53,760 nucleotides of DNA from Candidatus Pacearchaeota archaeon (GTDB taxonomy: Archaea > Nanobdellota > Nanobdellia > Pacearchaeales > GW2011-AR1): positions 1 to 53,760 of the forward strand of contig JASFEO010000005.1 of assembly GCA_050124795.1 (NCBI GenBank), given 5' to 3'. Shown piece by piece: positions 15,026-32,429 of the stretch. The translations under genes were made by a program, and so were the position numbers. Below the pieces are notes generated by a model. That model made no database searches and was not told where the DNA came from. It saw only the letters and a program-made list of their open reading frames with translations. Position 1 is the first letter of the stretch, and each line of letters begins with the position of its first letter.

Positions 15026-15098
15026 AGCCCCATAGTACAGTGGTCAAGTATCCAGGACTTTGAATCCTGGGACGCAGGTTCGAATCCTGCTGGGGCTA
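15026..15098 (+). tRNA. trnQ: tRNA-Gln(TTG), no intron, CCA not encoded
   Basis: Acceptor AGCCCCA/TGGGGCT, anticodon arm CAGGA-CT TTG AA-TCCTG, GTTCGAATC T-loop; A1-U72 pair typical of archaeal tRNA-Gln. Confidence 0.97.
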
Positions 15099-19929: not shown

Positions 19930-22233
19930 ATGGTTAAATTAAAAAAGAGGAAAATAAAGAAGTCCGGATTGGTCCGGAAGGGTGTAAAATCTTTGTTTTA
20001 CGGAGGGGTCGGGGCTGTAGCATTATTGAGTTTTGTTAATTTTTTGCCGACGAGATTTTCGCATTGTGTGGAAAAAGAAGTTGCGAGAATAGTTTATAAT
20101 AATATAAAATCTATTGAGAGAATTCCTGAAGAGTTAAAGCCTTATGGAAGCTCAGTTGTGTATCTTGATAGTGAAGGAGGAATTATTGGGGGATATGGGA
20201 GAAAGAAAAAAGGAAAGATTAGTGAGGATGCAAAGAAAGCGCTTTTAGCATGTGAAGATTATTATTTTTTTCCTCATGAAAAAAATTCATTGTTTGAAAA
20301 TCTTTTAGTTCATGAGGGAGTAAGTTTGTATAATATCGCAGGAACAATCTTTGATAGAATGAATGGAAAGAATCGCGGGGGGAGCACAATTTCTATGCAG
20401 GTTGTAAAGAAAATGATTAGGGAAGAAGATGAGGATAGAACTTATGGAAAAAAACTTGAAGAAATGATTCTTGCTTATTTGTATGAAGAAAAGTTTGGAA
20501 AGGAAAAGTTGCTTGAGCATTATATGTCAAATGTTCCGTTGGGAAATAGGGTGTCAGGATTTCAGGCAGCTGCAGAGGCTTATTTTGCAAAACCCCTTGA
20601 TAAATTGAATTTTCAGCAGTTGGTTACACTTGGTTCAATTATTCCCAATCATAATAGATTAAGGGCGTTATATAAAATTAATAATGGGAAGCTTTTATCA
20701 GAACTTTCTTCAGGACTTGAACATGCATTTGTTGATTCAAAGAATAAAATTAATTCTGCATTGCGGCGCTTGCATAAGATAAAAGAAATTAGTGATGGTG
20801 AGTTTCAGAATTGGCTTATTGAGGATGAAGAAGATGCAAAAGGGATTGGATTAAAAGGGCCTGATGTGGGGTTTTATGGAAATGATGCCTGGGCTGCAAG
20901 AGAGATTACTTCTGAAATTTTGTCTCAGAATTATTTTGTTAATGGGAATTTGGTTAGCGGGAGGGAACTTTTGCTTGATACACCCGGGGAGTCCTTAGTT
21001 ATTGAAACTGAGATTGACAGGTTTCTTGTTAATAGCATTAAGAAAAATATAAAGGAATTTTTGGAAAGTGATTATTATGACAGGATTCTTCGCCTTAGAA
21101 ATAGCCGCGTGAATAAATCTTTTGGAAAGCCGTCGTGGGAAGAAGATTTGTTGTATTACAAAAGAAATAAAATAAAACCTCCTTATGAGAATTTTGAAGA
21201 GTTTATAGGTTATCTAAAGGAAAATGTAAATATCGGAGTAATGGCTGTTAATCGGGGAGGGAATATTATTGCAAAGGTCGGGGGTAAGGAATTTTTTGTT
21301 GGAAGCAAAAGCCAGGAACCTGACTTTACAATGAAAAATAAAAAAATTATCGATATTTTAAAGAGCCCTGTGGCAGTAGGTTCAACAATTAAACCAATTA
21401 CTGCTTATTCTGCAATGGCTTTATCAGACAAAGGGGTTATTGAAGAAATTAACTTGAATACTTTATTTGCTGATATTCCCATTGAAAGAATTTATAATAA
21501 AAAACTTCGCTGTTGGGAATGGATGCCTGGAAATTGGTATGATTATGATTTGCTTGGGACCGGGAAAAACAGATATCTGGGTAGGGAATATAGTCTTCTT
21601 GAAGCGCAGGTTCTTTCTGTGAATACTATTTTTGCAAGGCTTTATTCAAACTTTTTGGTAAGAAAGGAAGTTCTTAAGATATTTGATACTGCAGGTCTTG
21701 AGTATAATCATGAGAATGCAAGGTGGTGGCCGTATGGTATTGGTTCTTTTGATGTTGATCCTGCAACTTGGCTTGGGATATATTCTGCTTTTATTGACGG
21801 GAATTATCGAAAACCTTCTATAATAAAAAATATTTTTTTGGATGGCGAAGAAATATCTAATAAATATTTTGATTTTGAAATACAGAGGATTCTTTTTTCT
21901 GATGAGGATGCAAGAAGAGCTGAAATAAAAGCATTGCATGAGGTATGCAACAGAGGTTCAGGGAGAAGGATGGAAAATTATTTTGAAGAGTTTAAAGATA
22001 GGGTCACAGGAAAAACAGGAACTGAGACTGTGCAAAAGACTTCACTTTTTGTGAGTCATTATAATTCTCACCTTGACAGGGAGGCTCATCCTGATGAAAC
22101 AATAGCAATGATTACAATTGTTACAACTAATACAGGAGGGTATAAGCGTGTTGGTTATTCAACTGAAGGGCCTGTGAGAGTCGCAGGAATGATTTATAAT
22201 GATTTGTATCAGGTTAGGCAGATACTTGAATAG
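19930..22233 (+). CDS. Class A penicillin-binding protein (GT51 transglycosylase plus transpeptidase)
   Basis: N-terminal TM; EDYYF…HEG, GGSTISMQVVK, KKLEE, KEKLLEHYMS; STIK, SVN, KTGT. Confidence 0.85.
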   Translation: MVKLKKRKIKKSGLVRKGVKSLFYGGVGAVALLSFVNFLPTRFSHCVEKEVARIVYNNIKSIERIPEELKPYGSSVVYLDSEGGIIGGYGRKKKGKISEDAKKALLACEDYYFFPHEKNSLFENLLVHEGVSLYNIAGTIFDRMNGKNRGGSTISMQVVKKMIREEDEDRTYGKKLEEMILAYLYEEKFGKEKLLEHYMSNVPLGNRVSGFQAAAEAYFAKPLDKLNFQQLVTLGSIIPNHNRLRALYKINNGKLLSELSSGLEHAFVDSKNKINSALRRLHKIKEISDGEFQNWLIEDEEDAKGIGLKGPDVGFYGNDAWAAREITSEILSQNYFVNGNLVSGRELLLDTPGESLVIETEIDRFLVNSIKKNIKEFLESDYYDRILRLRNSRVNKSFGKPSWEEDLLYYKRNKIKPPYENFEEFIGYLKENVNIGVMAVNRGGNIIAKVGGKEFFVGSKSQEPDFTMKNKKIIDILKSPVAVGSTIKPITAYSAMALSDKGVIEEINLNTLFADIPIERIYNKKLRCWEWMPGNWYDYDLLGTGKNRYLGREYSLLEAQVLSVNTIFARLYSNFLVRKEVLKIFDTAGLEYNHENARWWPYGIGSFDVDPATWLGIYSAFIDGNYRKPSIIKNIFLDGEEISNKYFDFEIQRILFSDEDARRAEIKALHEVCNRGSGRRMENYFEEFKDRVTGKTGTETVQKTSLFVSHYNSHLDREAHPDETIAMITIVTTNTGGYKRVGYSTEGPVRVAGMIYNDLYQVRQILE

Positions 22234-24012: not shown

Positions 24013-24837
24013 TTATAATTCTAAGTTGTCCAGAGGACTTTTAATATTTTCTAAATCTGATTTTGCAATGTGAGTATAGATCTGCGTTGTTCTTAAATTT
24101 TTGTGACCAAGGAGTTTCTGAATTTTTCTTAAATCTATTCCCTGCTCCAGAAGATGCGTTGCAAAACTATGCCTTAAAACATGGGGTCTTATTTTTTTTT
24201 GAATTGCTTTTATTGATGCTTTTTCAATTATTTTTTCAATTGTTTTGGGAGAGTATTTTTTTCTTCTGTTTGATTCAAATAAATAATTTTTAGGAGATTC
24301 TTTTAATAAATAAGTTAAGAGTTCTTTTTCAAGATTATTTGGGAAGAGCATGATTCTGTCTTTTGCGCCTTTTCCCTGGCGCACGACGATGATTTTTCTT
24401 TCGATGTCTATGTTATTTGGTTTTAAATTTAAAAGTTCAGAAACTCTTATTCCAGAAGCATACATTAATTTAATCATAATTTTGTGTTTTGGGTTTTCAA
24501 TTGATTGAATTATTTTTATTGTTTGTTCTTTATTCAAGACTTCAGGAATTTTTGATTCTTTTTTATAATGCGGAAGAAGGAATTCTTTTGATTTTCCAAG
24601 AGTATTAAATAAGATTTTAAGTGCAGCATATTTTTGTTTAATGTAACTTGTGCTTTGGTTTTTGTTAATTGAGTCTAGTATATATTTTTTAACTTCATCA
24701 TTTGTTATTTTATTCGAACTTTTTTTTAAGAAGTCATTTAAAATATTCATATAAGCTTTTATTGTTTTATTTGAGAGATTGTTTAGTTTTAGGAAATTCT
24801 CATATTCACTTTTAATCGAAATTATATCCTGATTCAT
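24013..24837 (-). CDS. Tyrosine recombinase, integron-integrase-like but lacking the IntI insertion
   Basis: SGIRVSE, RQGKGAKDR, HVLRHSFATHLLEQG, LLGH…TTQIYTH, C-terminal SPLD. Confidence 0.9.
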   Translation of the reverse strand: MNQDIISIKSEYENFLKLNNLSNKTIKAYMNILNDFLKKSSNKITNDEVKKYILDSINKNQSTSYIKQKYAALKILFNTLGKSKEFLLPHYKKESKIPEVLNKEQTIKIIQSIENPKHKIMIKLMYASGIRVSELLNLKPNNIDIERKIIVVRQGKGAKDRIMLFPNNLEKELLTYLLKESPKNYLFESNRRKKYSPKTIEKIIEKASIKAIQKKIRPHVLRHSFATHLLEQGIDLRKIQKLLGHKNLRTTQIYTHIAKSDLENIKSPLDNLEL

Positions 24838-24877
24838 TATTGAATTAATAAAGAGAAGTTTAAATAATTTTCTAAGA

Positions 24878-24900
24878 AGTTCGATTAAAAGTTGTTATGT
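24878..24900 (+). other. Candidate attI site (core GTTATGT at 24894)
   Basis: GTTATGTG is the exact complement of CACATAAC opening the first attC-like site; lies just upstream of the integrase promoter. Confidence 0.6.
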
Positions 24901-24947
24901 GCAATATTACTCGGGCACTTTTTTCTTCTAAATGTTATCAAGAAATC

Positions 24948-25817
24948 TTATAATCCACTATTTTGAAGTCTCTGTTTCGCAGCAGAAATTTCAGCATAAT
25001 CTCTTGCAGTGGGTTGTGGAAATGGATCAAATCCTAACTCGGCAACAAGCCAGCTTTCTCTTGAATTTGGTCTTCTCCAACTAAATCTTGAAGCAATTTC
25101 TCTATCTTGTTCTATTGACCTTGCAGTTGAAAGACTTTCTTCTCTAATTTCTTGTACAGAATCTAAAACAGACTGTAGAGAATCCGCTTCAAAACCTTTT
25201 TCAGCACAATATTGAGCATTATCACATAATGTATTAACTGCATTTGACCATCCTCTATTACCTTCATTTCTTGCCATTTCCATATAATGACTTACCCCTC
25301 GCTTATATGCTTCAGGTGTTAAATCTTTCTGTAATTCTTGTGGACAAGTTTCCAAACGACCATACAATCCTTCAGGTAATTTCACATATGGATAAGGAAA
25401 TCCTAATCCAACTGTAATTTCCAAACTCTTCATTGTTGCTTCAATATCTTTTTCTGCTTCAACTATTGCTCCAGTTTTTAGATGATCCCTAAATCGAGCA
25501 ATATGTTCTTGCATATGAGAATTAGCTTTATCAACATATGATTGCAACATTGGATTAACCCAACTATGAATTCTTTTGGCTCCAACAACCGAAAGTCTTC
25601 TAATGCTCACTGGTTCATCAAATGGAGTAGAATTCCATCTCATAACTTGATAAACTGTAGGTGGGTTGCTATCATGCAAGAATCCAATATATGTTCTATG
25701 ATTCGTGAATAATGTTGGATGTGTTTCTTTAGGAAATACATTATTGAAATGCCCATTAGGAAGAACTAAGTAAGTATCTCCTTCTTGTCTGACAACATTA
25801 TTAACTGGCTCAATCAT
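24948..25817 (-). CDS. Cassette 1: hypothetical protein
   Basis: 289-aa ORF with own TATA-like box, between attI and the first attC. Confidence 0.75.
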   Translation of the reverse strand: MIEPVNNVVRQEGDTYLVLPNGHFNNVFPKETHPTLFTNHRTYIGFLHDSNPPTVYQVMRWNSTPFDEPVSIRRLSVVGAKRIHSWVNPMLQSYVDKANSHMQEHIARFRDHLKTGAIVEAEKDIEATMKSLEITVGLGFPYPYVKLPEGLYGRLETCPQELQKDLTPEAYKRGVSHYMEMARNEGNRGWSNAVNTLCDNAQYCAEKGFEADSLQSVLDSVQEIREESLSTARSIEQDREIASRFSWRRPNSRESWLVAELGFDPFPQPTARDYAEISAAKQRLQNSGL

Positions 25818-25952
25818 AAATTAGTGAATAAGCTAATTCTTTAAATAGTTTTCTACTTCAAAATAGTAATCTGATTTCTTAATAACGAAAAAAGTGCCCT
25901 GCGTCATACTGTGCCTACGCTTCGCTTCGGCATTTTTTCTTGCAGAAAAAAC

Positions 25953-26064
25953 ACATAACAGCGATTAAGAGACTCCGCCTTGCAGGCTCCGTCCAAATTG
26001 AATTTTTGGAGGTCGCTACGCTCCACTCTCAAAAATCCAACTTCTCTTAATCGCGATGTTAATT
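25953..26064 (+). repeat. attC-like site 1
   Basis: ACATAAC-AGCGATTAAGAGA … TCTCTTAATCGC-GA-T-GTTAATT. Confidence 0.8.
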
Positions 26065-26115
26065 GCAATTTGAGATTTGGGCTAAAAATAGAAAGGGCTT
26101 TGGTTTTGTATATAC

Positions 26116-26892
26116 TCATTGATATTCTTGCTTTGCAATACCTAAAAGAATATTTCTCACCATTTTAAGAGTATTTGGTTGAACTTTATCTAAAGTGTCA
26201 TGAAATCCATTAATTTCCAATTTTTCTAATATTTTTGGAGTCGGTCCTCCTTCTGATTCCCATAACCTTCCTAGGTCAGATGAAACCGTAGAGAAAACAG
26301 TAGAATCAATTCCTGCTTGATTTAAAATAACATTATCTGAAGGAGGAGTTCCCGCATAAAAAAAAGGAATATTCAACTCAGTACATACTTTTTGGATTCT
26401 TCCATTCATGGCTTCTGAATTTTTAACATAGTCTTCCCACGATAAATCATAAGATTTACTACCTAACATAATTGCATTTCCTCTACCAGTTACCTCGAGA
26501 TTATATACTTTTGATAAATTCAAAAAGGGATCATTTACATATCCTTTTGAACCAATTAATCCAATTTCTTCTCCGTCAAAGAATAAAAACCCAAAAGGTA
26601 TTGGAGAACCTTCCTTCACCATTTTCTCTAAGGTTGACAACATCTCGATTACTGCAGAACCATTATCCAAAATTCCATCTCCTTCAGGGGTTTTGTCATA
26701 ATGTGCAGAAAATGCTGAAACTGGTAAATTTTTTGAATTTCCATAAACTACCCCAATATTTAGTAATTCTAAACCATCGTGGGATATTTTTTGTCTTAGA
26801 GGAGTCATTCCCATAGAACTTAAATTATCTAAAATAAATTCCCTTCGTGAATTATAATCACATCCCGAGTAATCTGCAATTCGGTCTAACAT
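26116..26892 (-). CDS. Cassette 2: M28-family zinc peptidase
   Basis: SAHYD, GILDNGSA, DGEEIGLIGS, SDN, HDTLD. Confidence 0.85.
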   Translation of the reverse strand: MLDRIADYSGCDYNSRREFILDNLSSMGMTPLRQKISHDGLELLNIGVVYGNSKNLPVSAFSAHYDKTPEGDGILDNGSAVIEMLSTLEKMVKEGSPIPFGFLFFDGEEIGLIGSKGYVNDPFLNLSKVYNLEVTGRGNAIMLGSKSYDLSWEDYVKNSEAMNGRIQKVCTELNIPFFYAGTPPSDNVILNQAGIDSTVFSTVSSDLGRLWESEGGPTPKILEKLEINGFHDTLDKVQPNTLKMVRNILLGIAKQEYQ

Positions 26893-26943
26893 AATTCTTG
26901 ATAATTATGTAAAAGTTATAAACCTTTCGGATAGTTACTATTA

Positions 26944-27893
26944 TGTGCTCCCACCTGACATATGTCGTAGGCTAAAATAACAAACTAAAATCATTATAAA
27001 CTTCATCAGGAGTTTTATTATTCAAACTCATATGAGGTCTGAAATGATTATATCTCATTCTCCAAAGTTCAGGATCTCCATTGCAAAACTTAAACTCTCT
27101 TTTGAAAGTCTGAAATAATCTTTCGACCTTCCCTTGAGTTGTTGGGCTATGAATTGCCCCGCGAATATGTTTAATCCCTTTTTTTCTCAATTTCACATCA
27201 AATCTGGAATGTTTGCTTTTCAATCCATATGCTGAACCATTATCAGTTAAAATCTCTCTGGGTTTTCCATAAACTTTGATTAAATCATCAATTAATTTAA
27301 TCACAACATCTGTTGTAACCCGATTAACAGGAACAAAAGCTAAACTTTTTCTCGAACAATCATCGACGACAGAAATAACATATTTATTCTTAATCTTTTG
27401 GTCGCTGTGATCAATCTGCCAAAGAGAATTAGGAGTCTTTCTTTGCCAGCGAATATATTTAATTCGCCTCTTTCTTCTTTTAGGATTATTAACTAATTTA
27501 TTTTTATTGAGAATTTTATTAATTGTTGTATGACTTAATGAAACAAGACCCTCAATCTTCTCAGCTCCCCAACCAGTTTCTTTTTTTATCTCCACAATTT
27601 TGCTTTCTAATTCAGAAGTTATCTTTCGATAAATTGTTTTTGGTTTTCTTGATTTATCCCTTAAATTCCAATCTGAATTATTCAGTTTATTTGTCCACCT
27701 TCTTAATGTCCTTATGTTAACTTCATAATTAAACTTAGCAAAGAGTATTTTCCTGCATTGGTTATTAGTGTGCCCCTTGATTCTAAGCTTGAAATATTCT
27801 TTTCTGATTAATTCTTTTTTCATTCAAAACCGAAGAAATCATCTGCGAACTAATTTTCGGTTTTGCCTAGGACATATGTCCCTTGCTTATACA
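26944..27893 (-). mobile_element. IS481-family insertion sequence
   Basis: Both ends read TGT-N10-GACATATGTC(G/C)TAGGC; single transposase; no target duplication seen. Confidence 0.85.
26972..27823 (-). CDS. IS481-family DDE (rve) transposase
   Basis: HTH, WQID, DDCSR, TDNGS, QGKVER, YNHFRPH. Confidence 0.92.
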   Translation of the reverse strand: MKKELIRKEYFKLRIKGHTNNQCRKILFAKFNYEVNIRTLRRWTNKLNNSDWNLRDKSRKPKTIYRKITSELESKIVEIKKETGWGAEKIEGLVSLSHTTINKILNKNKLVNNPKRRKRRIKYIRWQRKTPNSLWQIDHSDQKIKNKYVISVVDDCSRKSLAFVPVNRVTTDVVIKLIDDLIKVYGKPREILTDNGSAYGLKSKHSRFDVKLRKKGIKHIRGAIHSPTTQGKVERLFQTFKREFKFCNGDPELWRMRYNHFRPHMSLNNKTPDEVYNDFSLLF

Positions 27894-28401
27894 TCTTTAT
27901 CATGGTTTGAAATCAATGAAGATAAAGAAAATTGATTTTCAAGATTTGGTAAATGAACTCGCTGGTAATAATAAATTAAAGAAAGTGTTTTATTATACTG
28001 CAAGAATGGATAAGAATTTTGATGAGAAAAGATACGCCAAGCATCAAAAATTTCTTAAGAAACTTTCATCTATTCCGAACTTTAAAATTTCATATTGCAC
28101 TTTCAAGAAAATCATCGAAAAAAATGGTAAAGTCAGTTATGCTGTTAAAGGCGATGATGTTCAGCTAGCAAATGATATGATTGTTGGAGCCTATGAAAAC
28201 CTTTATGATATTGCAATATTGGTTTCAGGAGATGAAGACTTCAAGCCAGTTGTGCGTACAGTAAGAAAACGAGGAAAGGTAGTTGAAAATATTTTCTTTA
28301 GAGGAGGATCTTCATCAAGATTAAGGAAAACTTGTAACTCATCAAAGAACATTCGTTTTATTTTAGAAAAAATAAATAGGCGTCCTGGCATTACAGAGTA
28401 A
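27894..28401 (+). pseudogene. 5'-truncated NYN (LabA/DUF88, PIN-like) nuclease gene
   Basis: YYT, KGDDV, AILVSGDEDF, GKVVE; the N-terminal DxxN motif is replaced by the IS end. Confidence 0.8.
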
Positions 28402-28625
28402 CCCAGGACAGTTATTAGTATTATCACTAATCTAAACTTTAAAAATTCTTCGGTTGCCTAATTTTCGCCTTTCGTGGCGACTTACTTTTTAGAAAAAAGT
28501 AAGCAAAAAGCGCGCGCTTCCCACCCTAAGAATGGAGATTTAAATTTTCTTAACGCAGAAGAAAAAACTCCTTCGCCTTCGGCTCGGTGCCGTCTTGCAG
28601 ACTTTCGGCATAAATGCCTCACACG

Positions 28626-28749
28626 ACTTAACAGGGGATAAAGAGTAATTTCTTGCAGAAATTCCCCAAATTCTTCTTCCAGCTCGAGCCTGTGAGGTTC
28701 CGCTCCAGTCTCGAGGTCAGAAGAACTTTCCTTAAGCCCAATGTTAAGA
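28626..28749 (+). repeat. attC-like site 2
   Basis: ACTTAAC-AGGGGATAAAG … CTTAAGCCCAAT-GTTAAGA. Confidence 0.7.
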
Positions 28750-28919
28750 AAAATATTTCCACTTTCTCCGTCGCTGTTTTAACTTTTATCGTCGGAGATA
28801 AATCTCAAATTCTGATTTTGATATCTCCGCTTAACGCTCCAATGCGAAATTAAAATTGTCGCATAACATCGCTGATTAAACGAAATTTTTGAAAAATAAA
28901 AATAATAAAAACGAAAGAT

Positions 28920-29162
28920 TTATTCTAATTCTTTTTCTAATTCACTTAGACCTTTGTTCTCACCATATTTGATTTTGTTATAGAATCCTAATCCCATTGA
29001 CGCCAAAAATGCACCGCCAATCAAATATGGGTGGTCGAAGCTTTTGTCGCCGACAACATCAACAACTCCTGCAACCATTGAACTTGATGCCACGCCAAAA
29101 GCAAATCCATCATAGAATTCTCTAAGTGAATATTCTCTTAGTTTTTGAATTTTGTCATTCAT
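28920..29162 (-). CDS. Cassette: small two-TM membrane protein
   Basis: 80-aa ORF with BRE/TATA and GGAG upstream. Confidence 0.7.
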   Translation of the reverse strand: MNDKIQKLREYSLREFYDGFAFGVASSSMVAGVVDVVGDKSFDHPYLIGGAFLASMGLGFYNKIKYGENKGLSELEKELE

Positions 29163-29357
29163 TTTAATTCTCCTTACTAAGAGAATAAATTAATAGTTTA
29201 TAAATCTTTCGTTAATTTACTACTTGAAAGTTAATAACTTATTTTTCAAAAACTACGATATCAAAGAATTTTCGAAAGTGGAAATACTCTTCGGAATTTT
29301 TTTGCTTCGCAAAAAACCACTTGCAGTTATTCCTCGTCCTCGCCTTTGGCTCGGATT

Positions 29358-29481
29358 TCTTAACAGCGATTAAAACTCCGCTCCGTTGCACTCCGCTACG
29401 CCCTTCGGTTTTGTGGGATGCCTCAAAACCTACGGGGAAATAAATCCTTCGGATTTACTTCTCTTAATCGCGATGTTATAC
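29358..29481 (+). repeat. attC-like site 3
   Basis: TCTTAAC-AGCGATTAA … TTAATCGC-GA-T-GTTATAC. Confidence 0.8.
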
Positions 29482-29558
29482 GAAATTTCAAACCCTGTCT
29501 TGATGTAGAAAAGATTAAATAGGATCTGTTTTAATTAACATATTAGAGGATATAAAAT

Positions 29559-29957
29559 ATGAAAAAAGTAGAAAAAATTAACAATAATACTTTAGCCGTT
29601 ATAATTGGATTAGTGATTAGTATCGGCTGGATTTTTATGGGGCTTGATATTGGCTTCCAATTTGTGGCTCCAGATCAAATAAGTTACATACTAACATTGG
29701 CTGGGCAACGCCATACTATTATGACCCTATTAGCTTTAGTTCTAATTCCAATATGTGCCAGAGAAAATCGATGGGGTTTATTATCTGCAATGATTCTAGG
29801 AATAGTCACATTAACTTTATCGTTAGCCCACATCATCTATATGCTAATTGCTACTCCTTCTGGATTTGAATCACAAATATTTGGGCCCACGATTTGGTCT
29901 ATAATTCAAATACCAATAATATTTTTTGGTTATAAAGCTCAACAAGCATTGAGATAG
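29559..29957 (+). CDS. Cassette: four-TM membrane protein
   Basis: 132-aa hydrophobic ORF, GAGGA upstream. Confidence 0.75.
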   Translation: MKKVEKINNNTLAVIIGLVISIGWIFMGLDIGFQFVAPDQISYILTLAGQRHTIMTLLALVLIPICARENRWGLLSAMILGIVTLTLSLAHIIYMLIATPSGFESQIFGPTIWSIIQIPIIFFGYKAQQALR

Positions 29958-30083
29958 TTAAGCCGAATTTACTTAGAGGTAATCATACATCTGATTTTTG
30001 AAAAATTTAAGATATTAGTAAAAACCGCAGGGTTTGAAACTCAAGGGGGCGCTGCGCTTTCGTCGCTATTGCTCCTCACCCTC

Positions 30084-30183
30084 GTATAACAAGGGATAAA
30101 AGGAAAATTGTTCGGCTCGCAATTTTCCCAAATTTTTCTTCCACTTCGTTCCAGAAAAACTTCCCTTAAGCCCGATGTTAAAT
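30084..30183 (+). repeat. attC-like site 4
   Basis: GTATAAC-AAGGGATAAAAGG … CCCTTAAGCCCGAT-GTTAAAT. Confidence 0.75.
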
Positions 30184-30340
30184 CTAATTCTAAAACCTGC
30201 CTACCAAGACTAAAATAAAAATTATAATGTTGTTATCTTCGTTAAAATCATAAAGAAAAAACTTACAAAATTGCTACGCAGCTTTGCCTAACAAAATTTT
30301 AACGAAATTGTTGAAAAATAAAAATTATAGAACGAAAGAT

Positions 30341-30673
30341 TTACTTTTTTGTTTCTTGATTTATTCTAGATAGAATTGTTTTGTATAATTCTTGTGCTTT
30401 AGCTTTTTCCATATTGTCTGGAAGAATGTCGGCTGTTCCGTCTCTGTCTTTGTCGTAAAATGAAAGTTCAATTCCTTCTGGAGTTTTTAGTCTTAATCTA
30501 TAATCAGATGTCCATCCATGTCCCTTTCCCCAAGATGTTTGTTCGTAAACAACCCGATTTCCATCTATGTTTCCTGCATAGATTAAGCCTTTATTACTTT
30601 CATCTTTACCACAGCCTGACAAAGCTAAAGCTCCTGCCAAAACAATTCCAGTTAATGTTCTTTTGATTGTCAT
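30341..30673 (-). CDS. Cassette: putative lipoprotein
   Basis: Signal peptide with lipobox LSGC; DKDRDGTAD acidic loop. Confidence 0.7.
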   Translation of the reverse strand: MTIKRTLTGIVLAGALALSGCGKDESNKGLIYAGNIDGNRVVYEQTSWGKGHGWTSDYRLRLKTPEGIELSFYDKDRDGTADILPDNMEKAKAQELYKTILSRINQETKK

Positions 30674-30842
30674 ACAATAAAGAATAAATCAATACTTTAT
30701 AAATCTTTCGTTTCTTTTACTACTTTGAAGTTAATAATCTATTTTTCAACAACTACGATAACAACGAATTTTCGGCGAGCCCTGAACTTCTCCCTTCGGT
30801 CGACCACGTTGCACTCTCACTTCACTTCGTTTCGTTTGGGGA

Positions 30843-30979
30843 GTTTAACAGCGATTAAGAGGAAAATCCCTTGCAGGAATTTTCCCAAATCCTCGCCATC
30901 TCTGAAAAAATTTCCAGCTCTGTTTCACGAGGGAAATTTTTTCGAGGGCTTCGGACTTCTCTTAAGCCCGATGTTAAAC
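30843..30979 (+). repeat. attC-like site 5
   Basis: GTTTAAC-AGCGATTAAGAG … CTCTTAAGCCCGAT-GTTAAAC. Confidence 0.8.
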
Positions 30980-31026
30980 TCAATAAATTTGAAGTCCTAA
31001 AAAATAGAAAGGGGGCAGTTGCATAA

Positions 31027-31317
31027 CTACTTCTTGATTATTTTCTCCAGATTAATCTTATATTTCTCAAAAGCATCTTTCTTAAATGTGTAATGCACAT
31101 GCATTCCTTTTTTTTCAGATTCAAGCATTCCAGCATCAACTAACAACTTTAAATGTTTAGACACAGCAGGTTGAGATATATTAAGATTTCTCACAATAGC
31201 AGATACACACAAACTATGTTTTGAAAGCAATTCTAGAATTTTTAATCTATTTGAATCTCCTAAAAGTTTTGCAATCTTTGCAGTTTCTTCTATCAATTTG
31301 CTTCCCATAAATGGCAT
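31027..31317 (-). CDS. Cassette: ArsR/SmtB-family regulator
   Basis: LGDSNRLKIL, LCVSAI, SQPAVSKHL, G…HY. Confidence 0.9.
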   Translation of the reverse strand: MPFMGSKLIEETAKIAKLLGDSNRLKILELLSKHSLCVSAIVRNLNISQPAVSKHLKLLVDAGMLESEKKGMHVHYTFKKDAFEKYKINLEKIIKK

Positions 31318-31337
31318 ATAACTTAATGACTATTTAT

Positions 31338-31955
31338 TTATTTGCTTTTTTCATATTTAATTGCTTTTACGGGACAAGAATCCGAACATTCAAAACATAA
31401 AAGACAATTCTTTTTATCAATATTCAAGTTTTCATCAATAGCAACTCCAGGACAAATTTTCTCACATTTTTTACAATTAATACATTTATTTGTTTTTTTG
31501 ATCTGCATTCTTGAAAACCTTGCTGTTAATGAAAAAAGCATTCCCCATGGACACAAATATCTATGCCAAGTTCTAGCGTCAAATATAATTGTAGCAAATA
31601 ATCCTAATCCAATTATTATCAAAGGAAGAGGAAAGTTTTTACCCTGTTTCATCAACATTATCTTAAAAACAAAGCCAATTATGAAAAGAATGAATAAAGA
31701 GTATCTTAATAGCTCATTCTTGAAAAATGCCTTAATTTCTTTATTTTTGAATCCTAATTTCCTCTTTATTTTGTCAATAGGTGTTATAATTGTATTTATT
31801 GGGCATACCCACTCACAATAAAATCTTCCAAAGAAAAAAGACCCTATCAGAAACAGTAATACTATCCCCATCCAGATTTTATTTTTTTCTAAGATTATCA
31901 AAGTAAAAAAAATTAACAAAAACAAAAATTGGATTCCTTTTCTGATTTTTTGCAT
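31338..31955 (-). CDS. Cassette: membrane 4Fe-4S binding protein (NapH/MauN/YccM-like)
   Basis: GRFYCEWVCP, YLCPWG, two CxxCxxCxxxCP motifs; ATG at 31955 or 31967 is more plausible than 32075. Confidence 0.85.
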   Translation of the reverse strand: MQKIRKGIQFLFLLIFFTLIILEKNKIWMGIVLLFLIGSFFFGRFYCEWVCPINTIITPIDKIKRKLGFKNKEIKAFFKNELLRYSLFILFIIGFVFKIMLMKQGKNFPLPLIIIGLGLFATIIFDARTWHRYLCPWGMLFSLTARFSRMQIKKTNKCINCKKCEKICPGVAIDENLNIDKKNCLLCFECSDSCPVKAIKYEKSK

Positions 31956-31956
31956 T

Positions 31957-32094
31957 TTATTTTTCATTGCATAAACAGTTTCCTTTGAAGCAGTCTTTTC
32001 CTTCTTTGGTTCTTTTGATAACAATTTCAGAACCATTATCTTCAATTGTTCCAATTTCTTTTCCTTTGCATACAATCTTACATTCTCCGCACAT
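31957..32094 (-). CDS. Cassette: 45-aa Cys-rich peptide not in the ORF track
   Basis: MCGECKIVCKGKEIGTIEDNGSEIVIKRTKEGKDCFKGNCLCNEK; GGAGGT upstream; stop 1 nt before the next ATG. Confidence 0.7.
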   Translation of the reverse strand: MCGECKIVCKGKEIGTIEDNGSEIVIKRTKEGKDCFKGNCLCNEK

Positions 32095-32308
32095 TTTTAA
32101 TACCTCCTAATATTTAGTTATATAATCATATAATTATATTGTTATATATTTAAACCTTTCGATTCGTTATGCAACTGCCCCTCAATCTTGTTTTTGATGT
32201 ATCGCTGTCGCTTATTGGATAAAACGGACTTCAAATTTACTTTGAATTTTTCCTTCGCTTCGCTACGGAACGTTGCACTAATCCTCGGTCTCCGTTTCAC
32301 TCCGACGG

Positions 32309-32429
32309 ATATAACAGGAATTTAACGGAAAAATGCTCGGCTCGCATTTTTCCCAAATTTGATTTTCCAGCTCTGTTACGCTTCGCTTCACGAGGGAAAA
32401 TCAAACTTCGTTAAATTCCGATGTTATAA
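32309..32429 (+). repeat. attC-like site 6 (array end)
   Basis: ATATAAC-AGGAATTTAACG … CGTTAAATTCC-GA-T-GTTATAA. Confidence 0.8.

Follow-up and report, generated by a model that had tools for sequence, protein, structure and literature searches.

Cassette-closing inverted repeats in an integron-like array of a small-genome archaeon

Results

The array and its recombinase

The window analysed here is the whole stretch of 53,760 nucleotides (positions 1 to 53,760) of contig JASFEO010000005.1, from a small-genome archaeon classified as Candidatus Pacearchaeota (assembly GCA_050124795.1). It contains an integron-like array adjoining the gene of a tyrosine recombinase of 274 aa (24013-24837, minus strand), which is divergent from the array. 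The protein is of the XerA type. It scores 234.5 bits against the NCBIfam model NF040815 (recomb_XerA_Arch), above the cut-off of 220, which places it in the Xer family, whereas the scores against the integron integrase model TIGR02249 (179.8 bits, with the match split in two stretches) and against PRK15417 (113.8 bits) are below the cut-offs of 265 and 435, respectively. The nearest solved structures are the XerA/XerC-like 4a8e and 5hxy. The Pfam Phage_integrase match spans residues 100-259, and because these are 160 residues for 169 model positions, the catalytic domain carries no insertion. Profile and Pfam searches did not find the IntI-specific additional domain around patch III. A previous sequence-only reading of this locus had proposed that the IntI insertion is missing, which the NF040815 and TIGR02249 scores and the Pfam coverage bear out. 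A second XerA-like gene, 43% identical to the array recombinase, is found elsewhere in the genome (C3:961-1704).

The attI-side crossover region, G|TTATGTGCAAT, is at 24894-24905 on the plus strand, with cassette 1 beginning at 24895. It shows the TTA-NNNN-cAAT pattern, as does every cassette start, and is complementary to the R'' extension CACATAAC of attC 1. The six attC sites of the window align with an invariant TAACA ... ATGTTA and complementary L boxes, each being an imperfect palindrome R''-L''...L'-R' with conserved AAC and GTT. The asymmetry between R and L boxes (1 nt versus 3 nt) is conserved and implies a bulge of 2 nt on the bottom strand, in which a T is nearly invariant. The TTA-NNNN-cAAT pattern is 11 nt long, and the L box has 11 bp. 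Crossover is at G|TT, and each cassette behaves as a circularly permuted unit. In 45 of 81 cases the variable triplet of R'' complements the start of the same cassette, against 13 of 81 for that of the array neighbour; among 15 cassettes of the genome itself, the R'' extension matches its own cassette start at 8/8 positions in six and at 7/8 in five more. This match is explained by the variable bases of the R box travelling with the cassette, as in classical integrons.

A covariance model (R1, E up to 1) finds 22 attC sites on 7 contigs of the same genome. Matches occur in 24 of 61 genomes of relatives and, in a phylum-wide sample, in 51 of 151 genomes, both counts including G000. The recombinase gene adjoins the array in the window, and a homologous recombinase stands beside an array in 12 of the 40 loci fetched from other genomes. 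Neither an excision joint nor a circle junction was found at attC borders among the joints listed, the source run consisting of assembled contigs.

Closing stems of the cassettes in the window

The sequence-only reading had described every intact cassette as bracketed by nested, cassette-specific inverted repeats outside the attC hairpin. All ten pairs that it proposed are in the sequence, nine of them perfect (12-16 bp) and one with 13 of 14 positions paired (24934-24947/25873-25886); the nesting is correct, and a repeat search of the window also lists several of them. In cassette 1, the outer stem S1 (24913-24925/25887-25899, 13/13) is part of the minimum-energy structure with a pair probability of 0.99. 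The imperfect pair is its stem S2 (pair probability 0.97), the left arm of which abuts the stop of the minus-strand ORF 24948-25817, and a third nested stem, absent from the previous reading, pairs 13 bp exactly (24957-24969/25855-25867, 0.98). Between the right arm of S1 and attC 1 (25953-26064, plus strand, 97.1 bits with R1, crossover G26058|T26059) lies module X (25900-25952, plus strand), a set of G+C-rich hairpins that folds with a bottom-strand bias of GNA triloops.

Cassette 2 (26059-28743, plus strand) is composite rather than intact and has no closing stem. It contains an M28 peptidase half-cassette, an IS (26957-27880, with an rve transposase and 20-nt terminal inverted repeats), and an NYN half-cassette, i.e., it is two half-cassettes fused around an IS. 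A cassette on contig C31 shares 92% identity with the right half of cassette 2, which ends with attC 2 (28626-28749, plus strand, 92.6 bits).

Cassette 3 has a stem S1 (28754-28766/29274-29286, 13/13) with the left arm at cassette positions 11-23, and two inner stems (28886-28899/29239-29252 and 28910-28923/29200-29213, 14/14 each) set in a frame common to cassette 5. The right copies of these inner arms overlap a BRE/TATA-like motif, the putative promoter of the minus-strand gene; attC 3 follows at 29358-29481 (plus strand, 73.2 bits). Cassette 4, with its gene on the plus strand (29559-29957), is closed by S1 alone among the proposed pairs (29486-29497/30028-30039, 12/12, left arm at positions 11-22, pair probability 0.99) and ends with attC 4 (30084-30183, plus strand, 79.8 bits). 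Cassette 5 (30178-30973) keeps its inner stems (30308-30320/30740-30752 and 30331-30343/30700-30712, 13/13 each), and has lost the outermost left arms. Its sole remaining outer stem, of 9 bp, is 30229-30237/30757-30765. Beyond the right-arm region (30700-30765) are orphan right arms (30766-30786), the left partners of which are replaced here and kept in the homologous cassette of genome G171; one orphan arm differs from this homologue at one base, which suggests decay after the loss of its partner. The site attC 5 is at 30843-30979 (plus strand, 94.2 bits). In cassette 6, S1 (30984-30997/32226-32239, 14/14, pair probability 0.99) has its left arm at positions 11-24, and S2 (31012-31027/32166-32181, 16/16) has a left arm touching the stop of an ArsR-family gene (31027-31317, minus strand) and a right arm just upstream of the promoter-like motif of a two-gene unit. 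Module X (32240-32308, plus strand) and attC 6 (32309-32429, plus strand, 110.4 bits, crossover G32423|T32424) close the array.

The bracketing of intact cassettes is thus supported, and the inner arm touches a stop codon in four of five cassettes (ORF ends 24948, 28920, 30341, and 31027), in agreement with its having been described as usual. Cassette specificity holds for the outer arms and fails for the inner pairs of cassettes 3 and 5 (TTGAAAAATA.. and AACGAAAGATTTA..), which cross-match over 11 bp: being common to both cassettes, they are not specific to either, and they fall on a shared promoter-like frame.

A common scaffold

Closing stems are also found on other contigs of the same genome and in relatives up to the class level. 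The common scaffold begins at the crossover G|TTA, continues with four variable bases and cAAT, and reaches arm S1 at position 11; a short T/A-rich spacer, S2, and the gene with its own promoter-like motif follow. On the right side come S2', a spacer, S1', the G+C-rich hairpin module X (45-134 nt), and attC. The right arm is separated from the cassette's own attC by module X, lying 45-134 nt (median 63) upstream of it. Ahead of the left arm, the conserved TTA-NNNN-cAAT has A9 in 76, A10 in 79, and T11 in 79 of 81 cassettes, and 38 of 48 stems have a left arm beginning exactly at position 11. A second nested pair is usually present inside the first. The S1 and S2 arms vary in sequence from cassette to cassette and are perfectly complementary within each one, and conserved spacers, the left one T-rich on the gene strand, separate these variable arms. 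Four cassettes with X+attC 94-98% identical carry unrelated S1 arms. Stems occur with genes on either strand and in cassettes of 0.45-2.8 kb. Seven mini-cassettes of 71-231 nt consist of the scaffold only, and arms were not found in three of the seven mini-cassettes under 300 nt.

Crude ORF calls in 15 cassettes give ORFs only on the minus strand in nine, only on the plus strand in two, and on both in four. The layout thus differs from that of integrons whose promoterless cassettes face the same way as a platform promoter, the majority of genes here running antisense to attC. The motif upstream of the minus-strand genes is BRE/TATA-like (cGAAAGATTTAtA in cassettes 3 and 5) and a putative promoter.

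Own ends against mismatched ends

The pooled set comprises 74 cassettes of at least 300 nt from this genome and from relatives up to the class level. A stem of at least 9 bp is found in 48 of them and one of at least 12 bp in 40. When the border is verified by agreement of the R'' extension with the cassette's own start at 7 or all 8 positions, these numbers are 39/45 and 32/45. Mismatched left and right ends pair over at least 9 bp in 215/5402 combinations (4.0%) and over at least 12 bp in 16/5402. There are 47 distinct arm sequences among the 48. By this criterion, 26 of the 74 cassettes have no stem, with doubtful borders in many of these, not all. Within the genome itself, an exact stem of 9 bp or more with the expected geometry is present in 13 of the 15 cassettes that reach 300 nt. 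Nine of these 13 stems begin exactly at position 11, and the cassette's own right end ranks first of 37 by duplex energy in 12 of 15. A 5x5 comparison of left and right flanks gives longest exact matches of 12-15 for own ends and of 6-11 for mismatched ones.

Single genes outside arrays were taken genome-wide as a control. Among 359 such genes, 13 are flanked by an inverted match of 12 bp or longer. This match contains three or more G/C in only 2 of 359, the others being pure A/T runs; ordinary genes are therefore not flanked at the same rate, which would have counted against the repeats as a cassette feature. Mean arm G+C is 0.37 versus 0.32 for the genome, although the inner arms are partly A/T-rich, some having 1-3 G/C. 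The arms show one mismatch in 659 paired positions, and as perfect Watson-Crick duplexes they carry no signal of strand or of DNA versus RNA. In conclusion, the closing stems are a real, non-chance feature of these cassettes.

Predicted folding and strand bias

Each whole cassette was folded with DNA parameters together with both flanking attC sites. All claimed stems are in the minimum-energy structure in the full array context, with mean pair probabilities of 0.89-0.99. Hence the long stem looping out the gene of a single-stranded cassette, which the sequence-only reading had suggested, is a thermodynamic prediction as well. In folds of the circularised junctions, X and attC are enclosed in a junction that S1/S2 close. 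For attC alone, the R box has a mean pair probability of 0.97; with the arms present, the value is 0.94 when these are the cassette's own and 0.89 when they are shuffled, and the own arms come out higher in only 17 of 45 cassettes. The small predicted benefit for the R box indicates that, in this model, the stems are not needed for attC folding.

Strand bias comes from the hairpins of X and attC. In 15 regions, GNA triloops number 35 on the bottom strand and 3 on the top (300 shuffles: mean 3.9, maximum 11), and in 23 regions from relatives they number 43 and 0. Among 89 triloop hairpins on the bottom strand of X and attC, the loop is GAA in 17 and GCA in 15. The bottom-strand fold is the more stable one in 15 of 15 junctions. 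Excerpts of two studies describe d(GNA) loops as very stable in DNA (PMC3201870, PMC13037366).

Discussion

Relation to known integrons

The array resembles those of classical IntI integrons in standing beside a divergent tyrosine recombinase, in having imperfect-palindrome sites with conserved ..AAC and GTT.. ends and crossover at G|TT, and in having the bottom strand as the structured one. In classical integrons, as summarised in part of PMC5371416, cassette-specific complementarity involves only the 4 bp that vary in the R box, whereas here it goes on as one to three stems of 9-29 bp beyond a module of 45-134 nt. Two further differences concern the genes, which are mostly antisense to attC and preceded by a promoter-like motif, and the recombinase, which lacks the IntI-specific domain. 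Archaeal attC arrays are known from Ghaly et al. 2022 (PMC9668308), the main text of which reports them in metagenome-assembled genomes of archaea, among these the DPANN-group phylum Nanoarchaeota. No IntI is detected for many of these arrays; the IntIs that are described have the IntI-specific additional domain, and cassettes are "generally in the same orientation". Neither cassette-flanking repeats, nor a hairpin module, nor XerA-type integrases appear in the parts of its Results and Discussion that were covered. A literature search did not find cassette-closing stems described for integrons, in line with the earlier remark that no such general feature is known in classical cassettes. What appears to be new here is the presence of conserved, cassette-specific closing stems in an integron-like archaeal array.

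Outside integrons, the attP site of the filamentous phage CTX is a folded single strand that mimics dif, a duplex site with two 11-bp arms and a 6-bp spacer, and is used by XerC/XerD. The two systems share a Xer-family recombinase and, as predicted for the cassettes, a site that exists only through pairing between remote inverted stretches of one strand. CTX attP is a single phage site, whereas the archaeal system is a whole array in which each cassette has stems of its own and an attC-like hairpin.

Explanations for the closing stems

Chance matches in A/T-rich, low-complexity intergenic DNA are hardly credible as an explanation. The genome has 32% G+C, inverted matches of 12 bp or more, almost always pure A/T, flank 13/359 ordinary genes, and some inner arms have only 1-3 G/C; against this stand the 40/74 own versus 16/5402 mismatched ends at that length, the fixed start of the arms, their G+C above that of the genome, and the 2/359 ordinary genes with at least three G/C. 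The comparison of own and mismatched ends leaves a chance origin unsupported. It is very improbable that the arms act as duplex DNA, being the ends of an inversion switch or of a MITE-like element, even if a gene unit flanked by inverted repeats, with genes in both orientations relative to attC, has that appearance. No terminal sequence is common to the arms (47 distinct among 48), for which reason a transposon or MITE identity is rejected, and the array's only transposase is that of an IS whose terminal repeats are different. An unsystematic look noticed no direct-repeat target duplication at arm borders, and none of six inter-cassette matches of at least 150 nt is inverted, as an invertible segment would be, in what is a small sample of assembled contigs.

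An origin in gene expression, with the arms as symmetric promoter, terminator, or insulator sequences or pairing in read-through RNA, seems quite unlikely. It would account for the inner arms of cassettes 3 and 5, which fall on the BRE/TATA-like motif and its complement beside the stop codon, for the recurrence of this motif as inverted copies in cassettes at locus L006 of a relative, for the T-rich left spacer on the gene strand, and for the prevalence of minus-strand genes (nine of 15 cassettes only minus, two only plus, four mixed). The outer arms, however, are placed relative to the recombination point and not to the gene, whichever its orientation, and the right S2 arm is upstream of the promoter-like motif and hence outside the gene's own transcript. 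Furthermore, 47 different arm sequences cannot be the binding site of one protein, and the loop bias is specific to DNA and to the bottom strand. The stems might instead be relics of cassette genesis without present function, X+attC having been inserted into or copied beside an existing palindrome, or the making of cassettes itself having produced an inverted duplication. Perfect, cassette-unique arms next to X+attC that can be 94-98% identical between cassettes do look like a module joined to local sequences, and the seven scaffold-only mini-cassettes (71-231 nt) fit as well. Nevertheless, this too appears unlikely: random target palindromes are not expected to give the fixed geometry observed (position 11 in 38/48, second stem at a similar offset), nor is a relic expected to have conserved spacers between variable arms or to be kept across a class-level sample of genomes. 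Neutral relics should also show many mismatches, and there is one in 659 paired positions; the orphan arm of cassette 5 is one base off its intact homologue.

A probable single-strand panhandle

The fixed geometry, the cassette specificity shown by the comparison of ends, the conservation of the repeats across a class of archaea, the predicted folds, and the bottom-strand bias of stable loops together suggest that the stems are probably a selected single-strand panhandle that joins the two ends of a cassette and sets attC in a multi-branch junction, with a presumed role in recombination in the cell. If the bottom strand became single-stranded, S1 and S2 would pair and loop out the gene, which would bring the end of the upstream attC beside X and the cassette's own attC. 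In the excised circle, the stems and the cassette-specific R box extension would close a multi-branch junction holding X and attC. Such a junction could pre-organise both recombination sites of one cassette for the recombinase, and the arms might serve as a private "address" of each cassette, so that single, whole cassettes would be exchanged. In bacteria, the single-stranded state arises with imported, transferred, or replicating DNA; in these archaea, such a state is presumed. Vibrio cassettes are excised from linear single-stranded DNA by a single strand exchange, according to part of PMC12614218, which makes a role of the panhandle more plausible. The stem can equally be read as a cassette-specific outward extension of the attC structure, since in an excised circle the arms are at short range around attC and the hairpin module.

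The closing stems may compensate for the missing IntI insertion, as the sequence-only reading suggested. A wider reading, which we offer tentatively, is that an archaeal version of the integron is spread across a whole class. In it, the recombination unit would go beyond the attC hairpin and be the cassette-spanning panhandle, with private stems and a GNA-capped module X building a multi-way junction around attC. This would enable a plain XerA-type recombinase, lacking the IntI insertion, to excise and insert whole self-expressing cassettes. If so, the variant would either have been invented independently or have survived from an early stage of the integron. The hairpins of X and attC also recall the stable mini-hairpins d(GCGAAGC) and d(GNA) triloops, for which the abstracts of PMC13037366 and PMC3201870 deal with structure, stability, and applications; the same loops abound here on the bottom strand, as a recurrent, strand-specific block of a natural recombination site.

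Recombinase, Sites, and Cassettes

The genome that carries the array is small (1.06 Mb in 38 contigs, 32% G+C), and the window is its contig C5. For the SSU rRNA of this genome, the archaeal model gives a score of 1264 bits and the bacterial one 986 bits. The genomes of its relatives span 0.4–1.6 Mb, and small genomes throughout suggest an archaeon of the DPANN type. The ORF at the left of the array (24013–24837, minus strand) codes for a tyrosine recombinase of 274 aa, and is followed on its right by six attC-like sites of the plus strand, with invariant ends TAACA...ATGTTA and complementary inner boxes. A covariance model built from these six sites (R1) finds 22 sites on seven contigs of the same genome (E up to 1), which together with the attI-side crossover 24894|24895 bound 16 cassettes. 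The four variable bases at the start of a cassette match the R'' extension of the same cassette, and the variable triplet of R'' fits the start of its own cassette in 45 of 81 cassettes versus that of the array neighbour in 13 of 81. Such a match is a known hallmark of circularly permuted integron cassettes. On the bottom strand, the R and L boxes are separated by a 2-nt bulge in which a T is nearly invariant. A 23-nt inverted repeat (83%, 24801–24823 and 24877–24899) spans the recombinase gene start and the attI region, and the only Rfam match at gathering score in the window is a tRNA (15026–15098).

The recombinase passes the archaeal XerA model (234.5 bits, cut-off 220) and fails the integron-integrase model (179.8 bits, cut-off 265), its match to the latter being split in two stretches, with the break at the position expected for the IntI insertion. 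Among solved structures, the best relatives of the recombinase are XerA/XerC-like. Judged from its sequence, the array-linked recombinase is a XerA-type protein without the IntI insertion. The genome also codes for a XerA-like paralogue with 43% identity to it (contig C3, 961–1704), and a recombinase fragment of 47 residues, 70% identical, adjoins another attC (contig C34, 692–832). Homologues with 35%–67% identity are found beside arrays in 12 of the 40 loci fetched from relatives, their genes being divergent from the array, as in the window, where coordinates were examined. Among plasmids, the top tblastn matches of the recombinase are XerA-like genes of Bacteroidota and Clostridium, with no usable cassette array.

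The array resembles an integron in its working, as seen in its sites, its crossover, and its synteny; the recombinase does not have the IntI domain, and the cassettes do not appear promoterless. In bacteria, a special protein domain of the integrase reads a simple hairpin. Here, elaborate sites go with a plain XerA recombinase, and the contrast bears on the evolution of integron integrases from Xer recombinases. The archaeal integrons of 2022 also differ, since they have an IntI with the special domain (PMC9668308). Cassettes of classical integrons are generally promoterless (PMC8946536), in contrast with those of the archaeal array.

Within the same family and order, 24 of 61 genomes have sites found by R1; a phylum-wide sample of 151 high-quality genomes yields 51 with such sites, all of these labelled as the same class or family (both counts include the genome of the window). 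The 40 fetched loci, searched again with R1, provided 65 further cassettes. In the order-level set, hits were chosen by hand, with omission of opposite-strand duplicates and of two partial hits (L003, 6303–6394; L006, 8363–8409); in the class-level set, consecutive attC pairs were used only when spaced by 60 nt to 4.5 kb, which kept 42 of about 48 pairs.

Cassette Ends Carry Matching Inverted Repeats

The sequence-only reading had proposed that every intact cassette of the window is bracketed by nested inverted repeats specific to it. The ten pairs that it listed are indeed reverse complements, nine of them perfect (12–16 bp) and one matching at 13 of 14 positions. They are nested, the inner arm touches the stop codon in four of five cassettes, and bracketing holds for every intact cassette; a broken one, cassette 5, illustrates how loss appears. 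Specificity stands only in part. When the left flank of each window cassette is compared with every right flank, the longest exact match is 12–15 nt with its own right flank versus 6–11 nt with mismatched ones; the inner pairs of cassettes 3 and 5 are common to both and therefore not cassette-specific.

Across the cassettes of the genome, these repeats follow a rule. The outer left arm begins at cassette position 11, i.e., ten bases past the crossover, and the partner arm stops some tens of bases short of the AAC in the attC of the same cassette (outer stem, S1); the second pair (S2) lies at about positions 33–54 on the left and 108–134 nt from the right end. Before the arm, the cassette start is conserved as T1 T2 A3, four variable bases, and c-A-A-T (of 81 cassettes, 76 have A9, 79 have A10, and 79 have T11). 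Between the right arm of S1 and attC there is a G+C-rich module, X, that folds into small hairpins. The shared start TTA-NNNN-cAAT (24895–24905 and all cassette starts) has 11 nt, as many as the L box has base pairs, and may be a recombinase half-site. The start of the arm at position 11 could sharpen the detection of cassette borders in archaeal metagenomes.

The rule is kept in distant genomes: locus L023 of a relative has four consecutive cassettes with arms of 12–16 bp starting at position 11 and partners 57–67 nt before R''. Among all cassettes of at least 300 nt (n = 74), a stem of at least 9 bp is present in 48 and one of at least 12 bp in 40, and these numbers become 39 and 32 of 45 when the R'' extension matches the cassette's own start at seven or more of eight positions. 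Mismatched left and right ends give such stems in only 215 and 16 of 5402 combinations. In 38 of 48 stems the arm begins precisely at position 11, and duplex energy ranks the cassette's own right end first of 37 in 12 of 15 cassettes of the genome and in 11 of 22 order-level cassettes. Because cassettes are defined by consecutive R1 hits, a missed attC creates false borders and lowers these counts; the stemless cassettes are mostly long and have poor R-extension matches, which suggests missed attC sites.

That the closing stems are chance matches has a practically negligible probability. Inverted matches do flank some ordinary genes, as that explanation would have it; still, among 359 single genes outside arrays with spacers of at least 40 nt on both sides, only 13 are flanked by an inverted match of at least 12 bp, almost pure A/T in all but two cases. 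Chance and low complexity are ruled out by this genome-wide control together with the excess of matches between own ends over mismatched ones. Cassette 2, which is not intact and has no pair, serves as a further control. The strongest non-cassette case is a 15-bp inverted repeat, CGAAATATTTCGTGT, at contig C11 (21234–21953), placed 5 and 1 nt from the ends of an ordinary gene (21254–21937).

The stem statistics do not include the seven of 81 cassettes shorter than 300 nt, of which four have arms of 9 bp or more and three lack arms. These mini-cassettes (71–231 nt) hold only the scaffold, i.e., the R-box start, sometimes arms, and module X, and no gene. They are found in the genome of the window (contig C24, 125–195) and in relatives (L006, 8907–9059; L030, L031, L036, and L037) and are possibly empty cassette frames.

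Exceptions and Expression Signals

Cassette 2 has no repeat pair and is interrupted by an insertion sequence (26957–27880) with an rve-family transposase (26972–27823) and 20-nt terminal inverted repeats (26957–26976 and 27861–27880). The element sits at the junction of two half-cassettes, one coding for an M28 peptidase and the other for a NYN-domain protein. A cassette on contig C31 has a right half with 92% identity to the right (NYN) half; hence, cassette 2 is a fusion of two half-cassettes. Cassette 5 has no outer stem. At the right end it shares 92% identity with a cassette in a relative (genome G171, locus L023), in which left arms at positions 11–23 and 40–49 pair with the right end. 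Compared with this copy, the first ~47 nt of cassette 5 are replaced, and of its two orphan right arms one differs at a single base and the other is unchanged.

The shared inner pairs of cassettes 3 and 5 fall on a BRE/TATA-like motif, a putative promoter, that precedes the minus-strand gene, and on the complement of this motif next to the stop codon. Cassette genes are mostly antisense to attC (window 29163–29260, 30674–30760, and 32076–32165; contigs C24, C29, and C30). Upstream of them one finds the conserved BRE/TATA-like motif cGAAAGATTTAtA and, further upstream, a AGTAGTAA-like element, and downstream a conserved spacer, CTAAAAATAGAAAG, between the arms of S1 and S2. From these sequences, the cassettes seem to be complete expression units in themselves, built on a common scaffold.

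Predicted Folds and Strand

The sequence-only reading held that a stem loops out the gene. When window cassettes are folded from the upstream through the downstream attC (833–1593 nt), the predicted minimum-energy structure contains every stem claimed in that reading, and mean pair probabilities are 0.89–0.99. When the right end, attC, and left end of a cassette are joined as a circle and folded with DNA parameters, S1 and S2 are placed at the base of a multi-branch junction bearing the X hairpins and attC. Hairpin stems within X covary between cassettes with otherwise alike X modules.

A role of the stems as a clamp aiding the folding of attC is at best weakly supported. Over 45 cassettes, the mean pairing probability of the R box is 0.97 when attC is folded alone, 0.94 when the own arms are present, and 0.89 when they are shuffled, i.e., not noticeably raised by the stems, and the predicted pairing without arms is already ~0.99 in most cassettes.

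With one mismatch in 659 paired positions, the arms provide no strand signal from G·T wobbles. The loops of X and attC do. Among triloop hairpins whose stem has 3 bp or more, GNA loops (GAA, GCA) number 35 on the bottom strand versus 3 on the top strand in 15 regions of the genome, and 43 versus 0 in 23 regions of relatives; shuffled sequences average 3.9 and reach 11 at most. In all 15 junctions the bottom strand gives the more stable fold, and it is the strand used in integron recombination. Hairpins of the GCGAAGC type are among those with GNA caps (window 25900–26064, 29287–29481, 32240–32429, and equivalents). Both d(GNA) loops and GCGNAGC mini-hairpins are described as exceptionally stable in DNA (PMC3201870, PMC13037366). 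This stability and the bottom-strand bias point to single-stranded bottom-strand DNA, rather than RNA, as the structured form. The mini-hairpins are a natural case of a DNA motif otherwise described for structure and applications.

Possible Roles of the Closing Stems

We lean towards the view that the closing stems are a selected single-strand "panhandle" of the cassette, with a function that we infer. In the array, it would loop out the gene and set the upstream attC beside X and the attC of the cassette itself. Within the circle, it would close the junction around attC, and the unique arm sequences might act as private cassette addresses. In Vibrio, a single exchange of strands is reported to suffice for cassette excision from linear single-stranded DNA (PMC12614218), which makes a role of the panhandle in recombination plausible. 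A conserved, covarying stem tying the cassette ends provides a testable architecture for how the two attC hairpins of one cassette meet.

The arms could instead be a relic of cassette genesis, which we regard as unlikely; a genesis mechanism must yield matched arms, and the stems therefore constrain how cassettes are made. Somewhat less likely still is a symmetry related to expression, of the kind that the promoter-like inner pairs of cassettes 3 and 5 display. A switch at the duplex level, or transposon ends, would also place inverted repeats around a gene and is very improbable: none of six matches is inverted, against an inversion switch, and transposon ends are ruled out because the arms all differ (47 different sequences among 48).

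In classical integrons, complementarity specific to a cassette is confined to the four variable bp of the R box (PMC5371416). A search of the openly accessible literature found no description of cassette-flanking stems or repeats.

Traces of Mobility

Four sequencing runs (X1, X2, X3, and X7), all in the form of assembled contigs rather than raw reads, were compared with the window; parts that X2, X3, and X7 leave uncovered do not indicate absence. For X1, probably the source run, the listed joints include no excision or circle junction at attC borders. Some joints of X7 stop at arm borders, with short sides of 20–36 nt and 90% likeness; most plausibly they come from cassettes of other organisms built on the same scaffold, so that they are no more than a weak hint of excision. 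Cassette 6 codes for an ArsR-family regulator and a 4Fe-4S membrane protein (30973–32180). It is covered (about 30970–32180) at ~96%–100% identity by contigs of a salt-marsh run and a marine-sediment run, with one contig starting at 30973, the base immediately ahead of the cassette.
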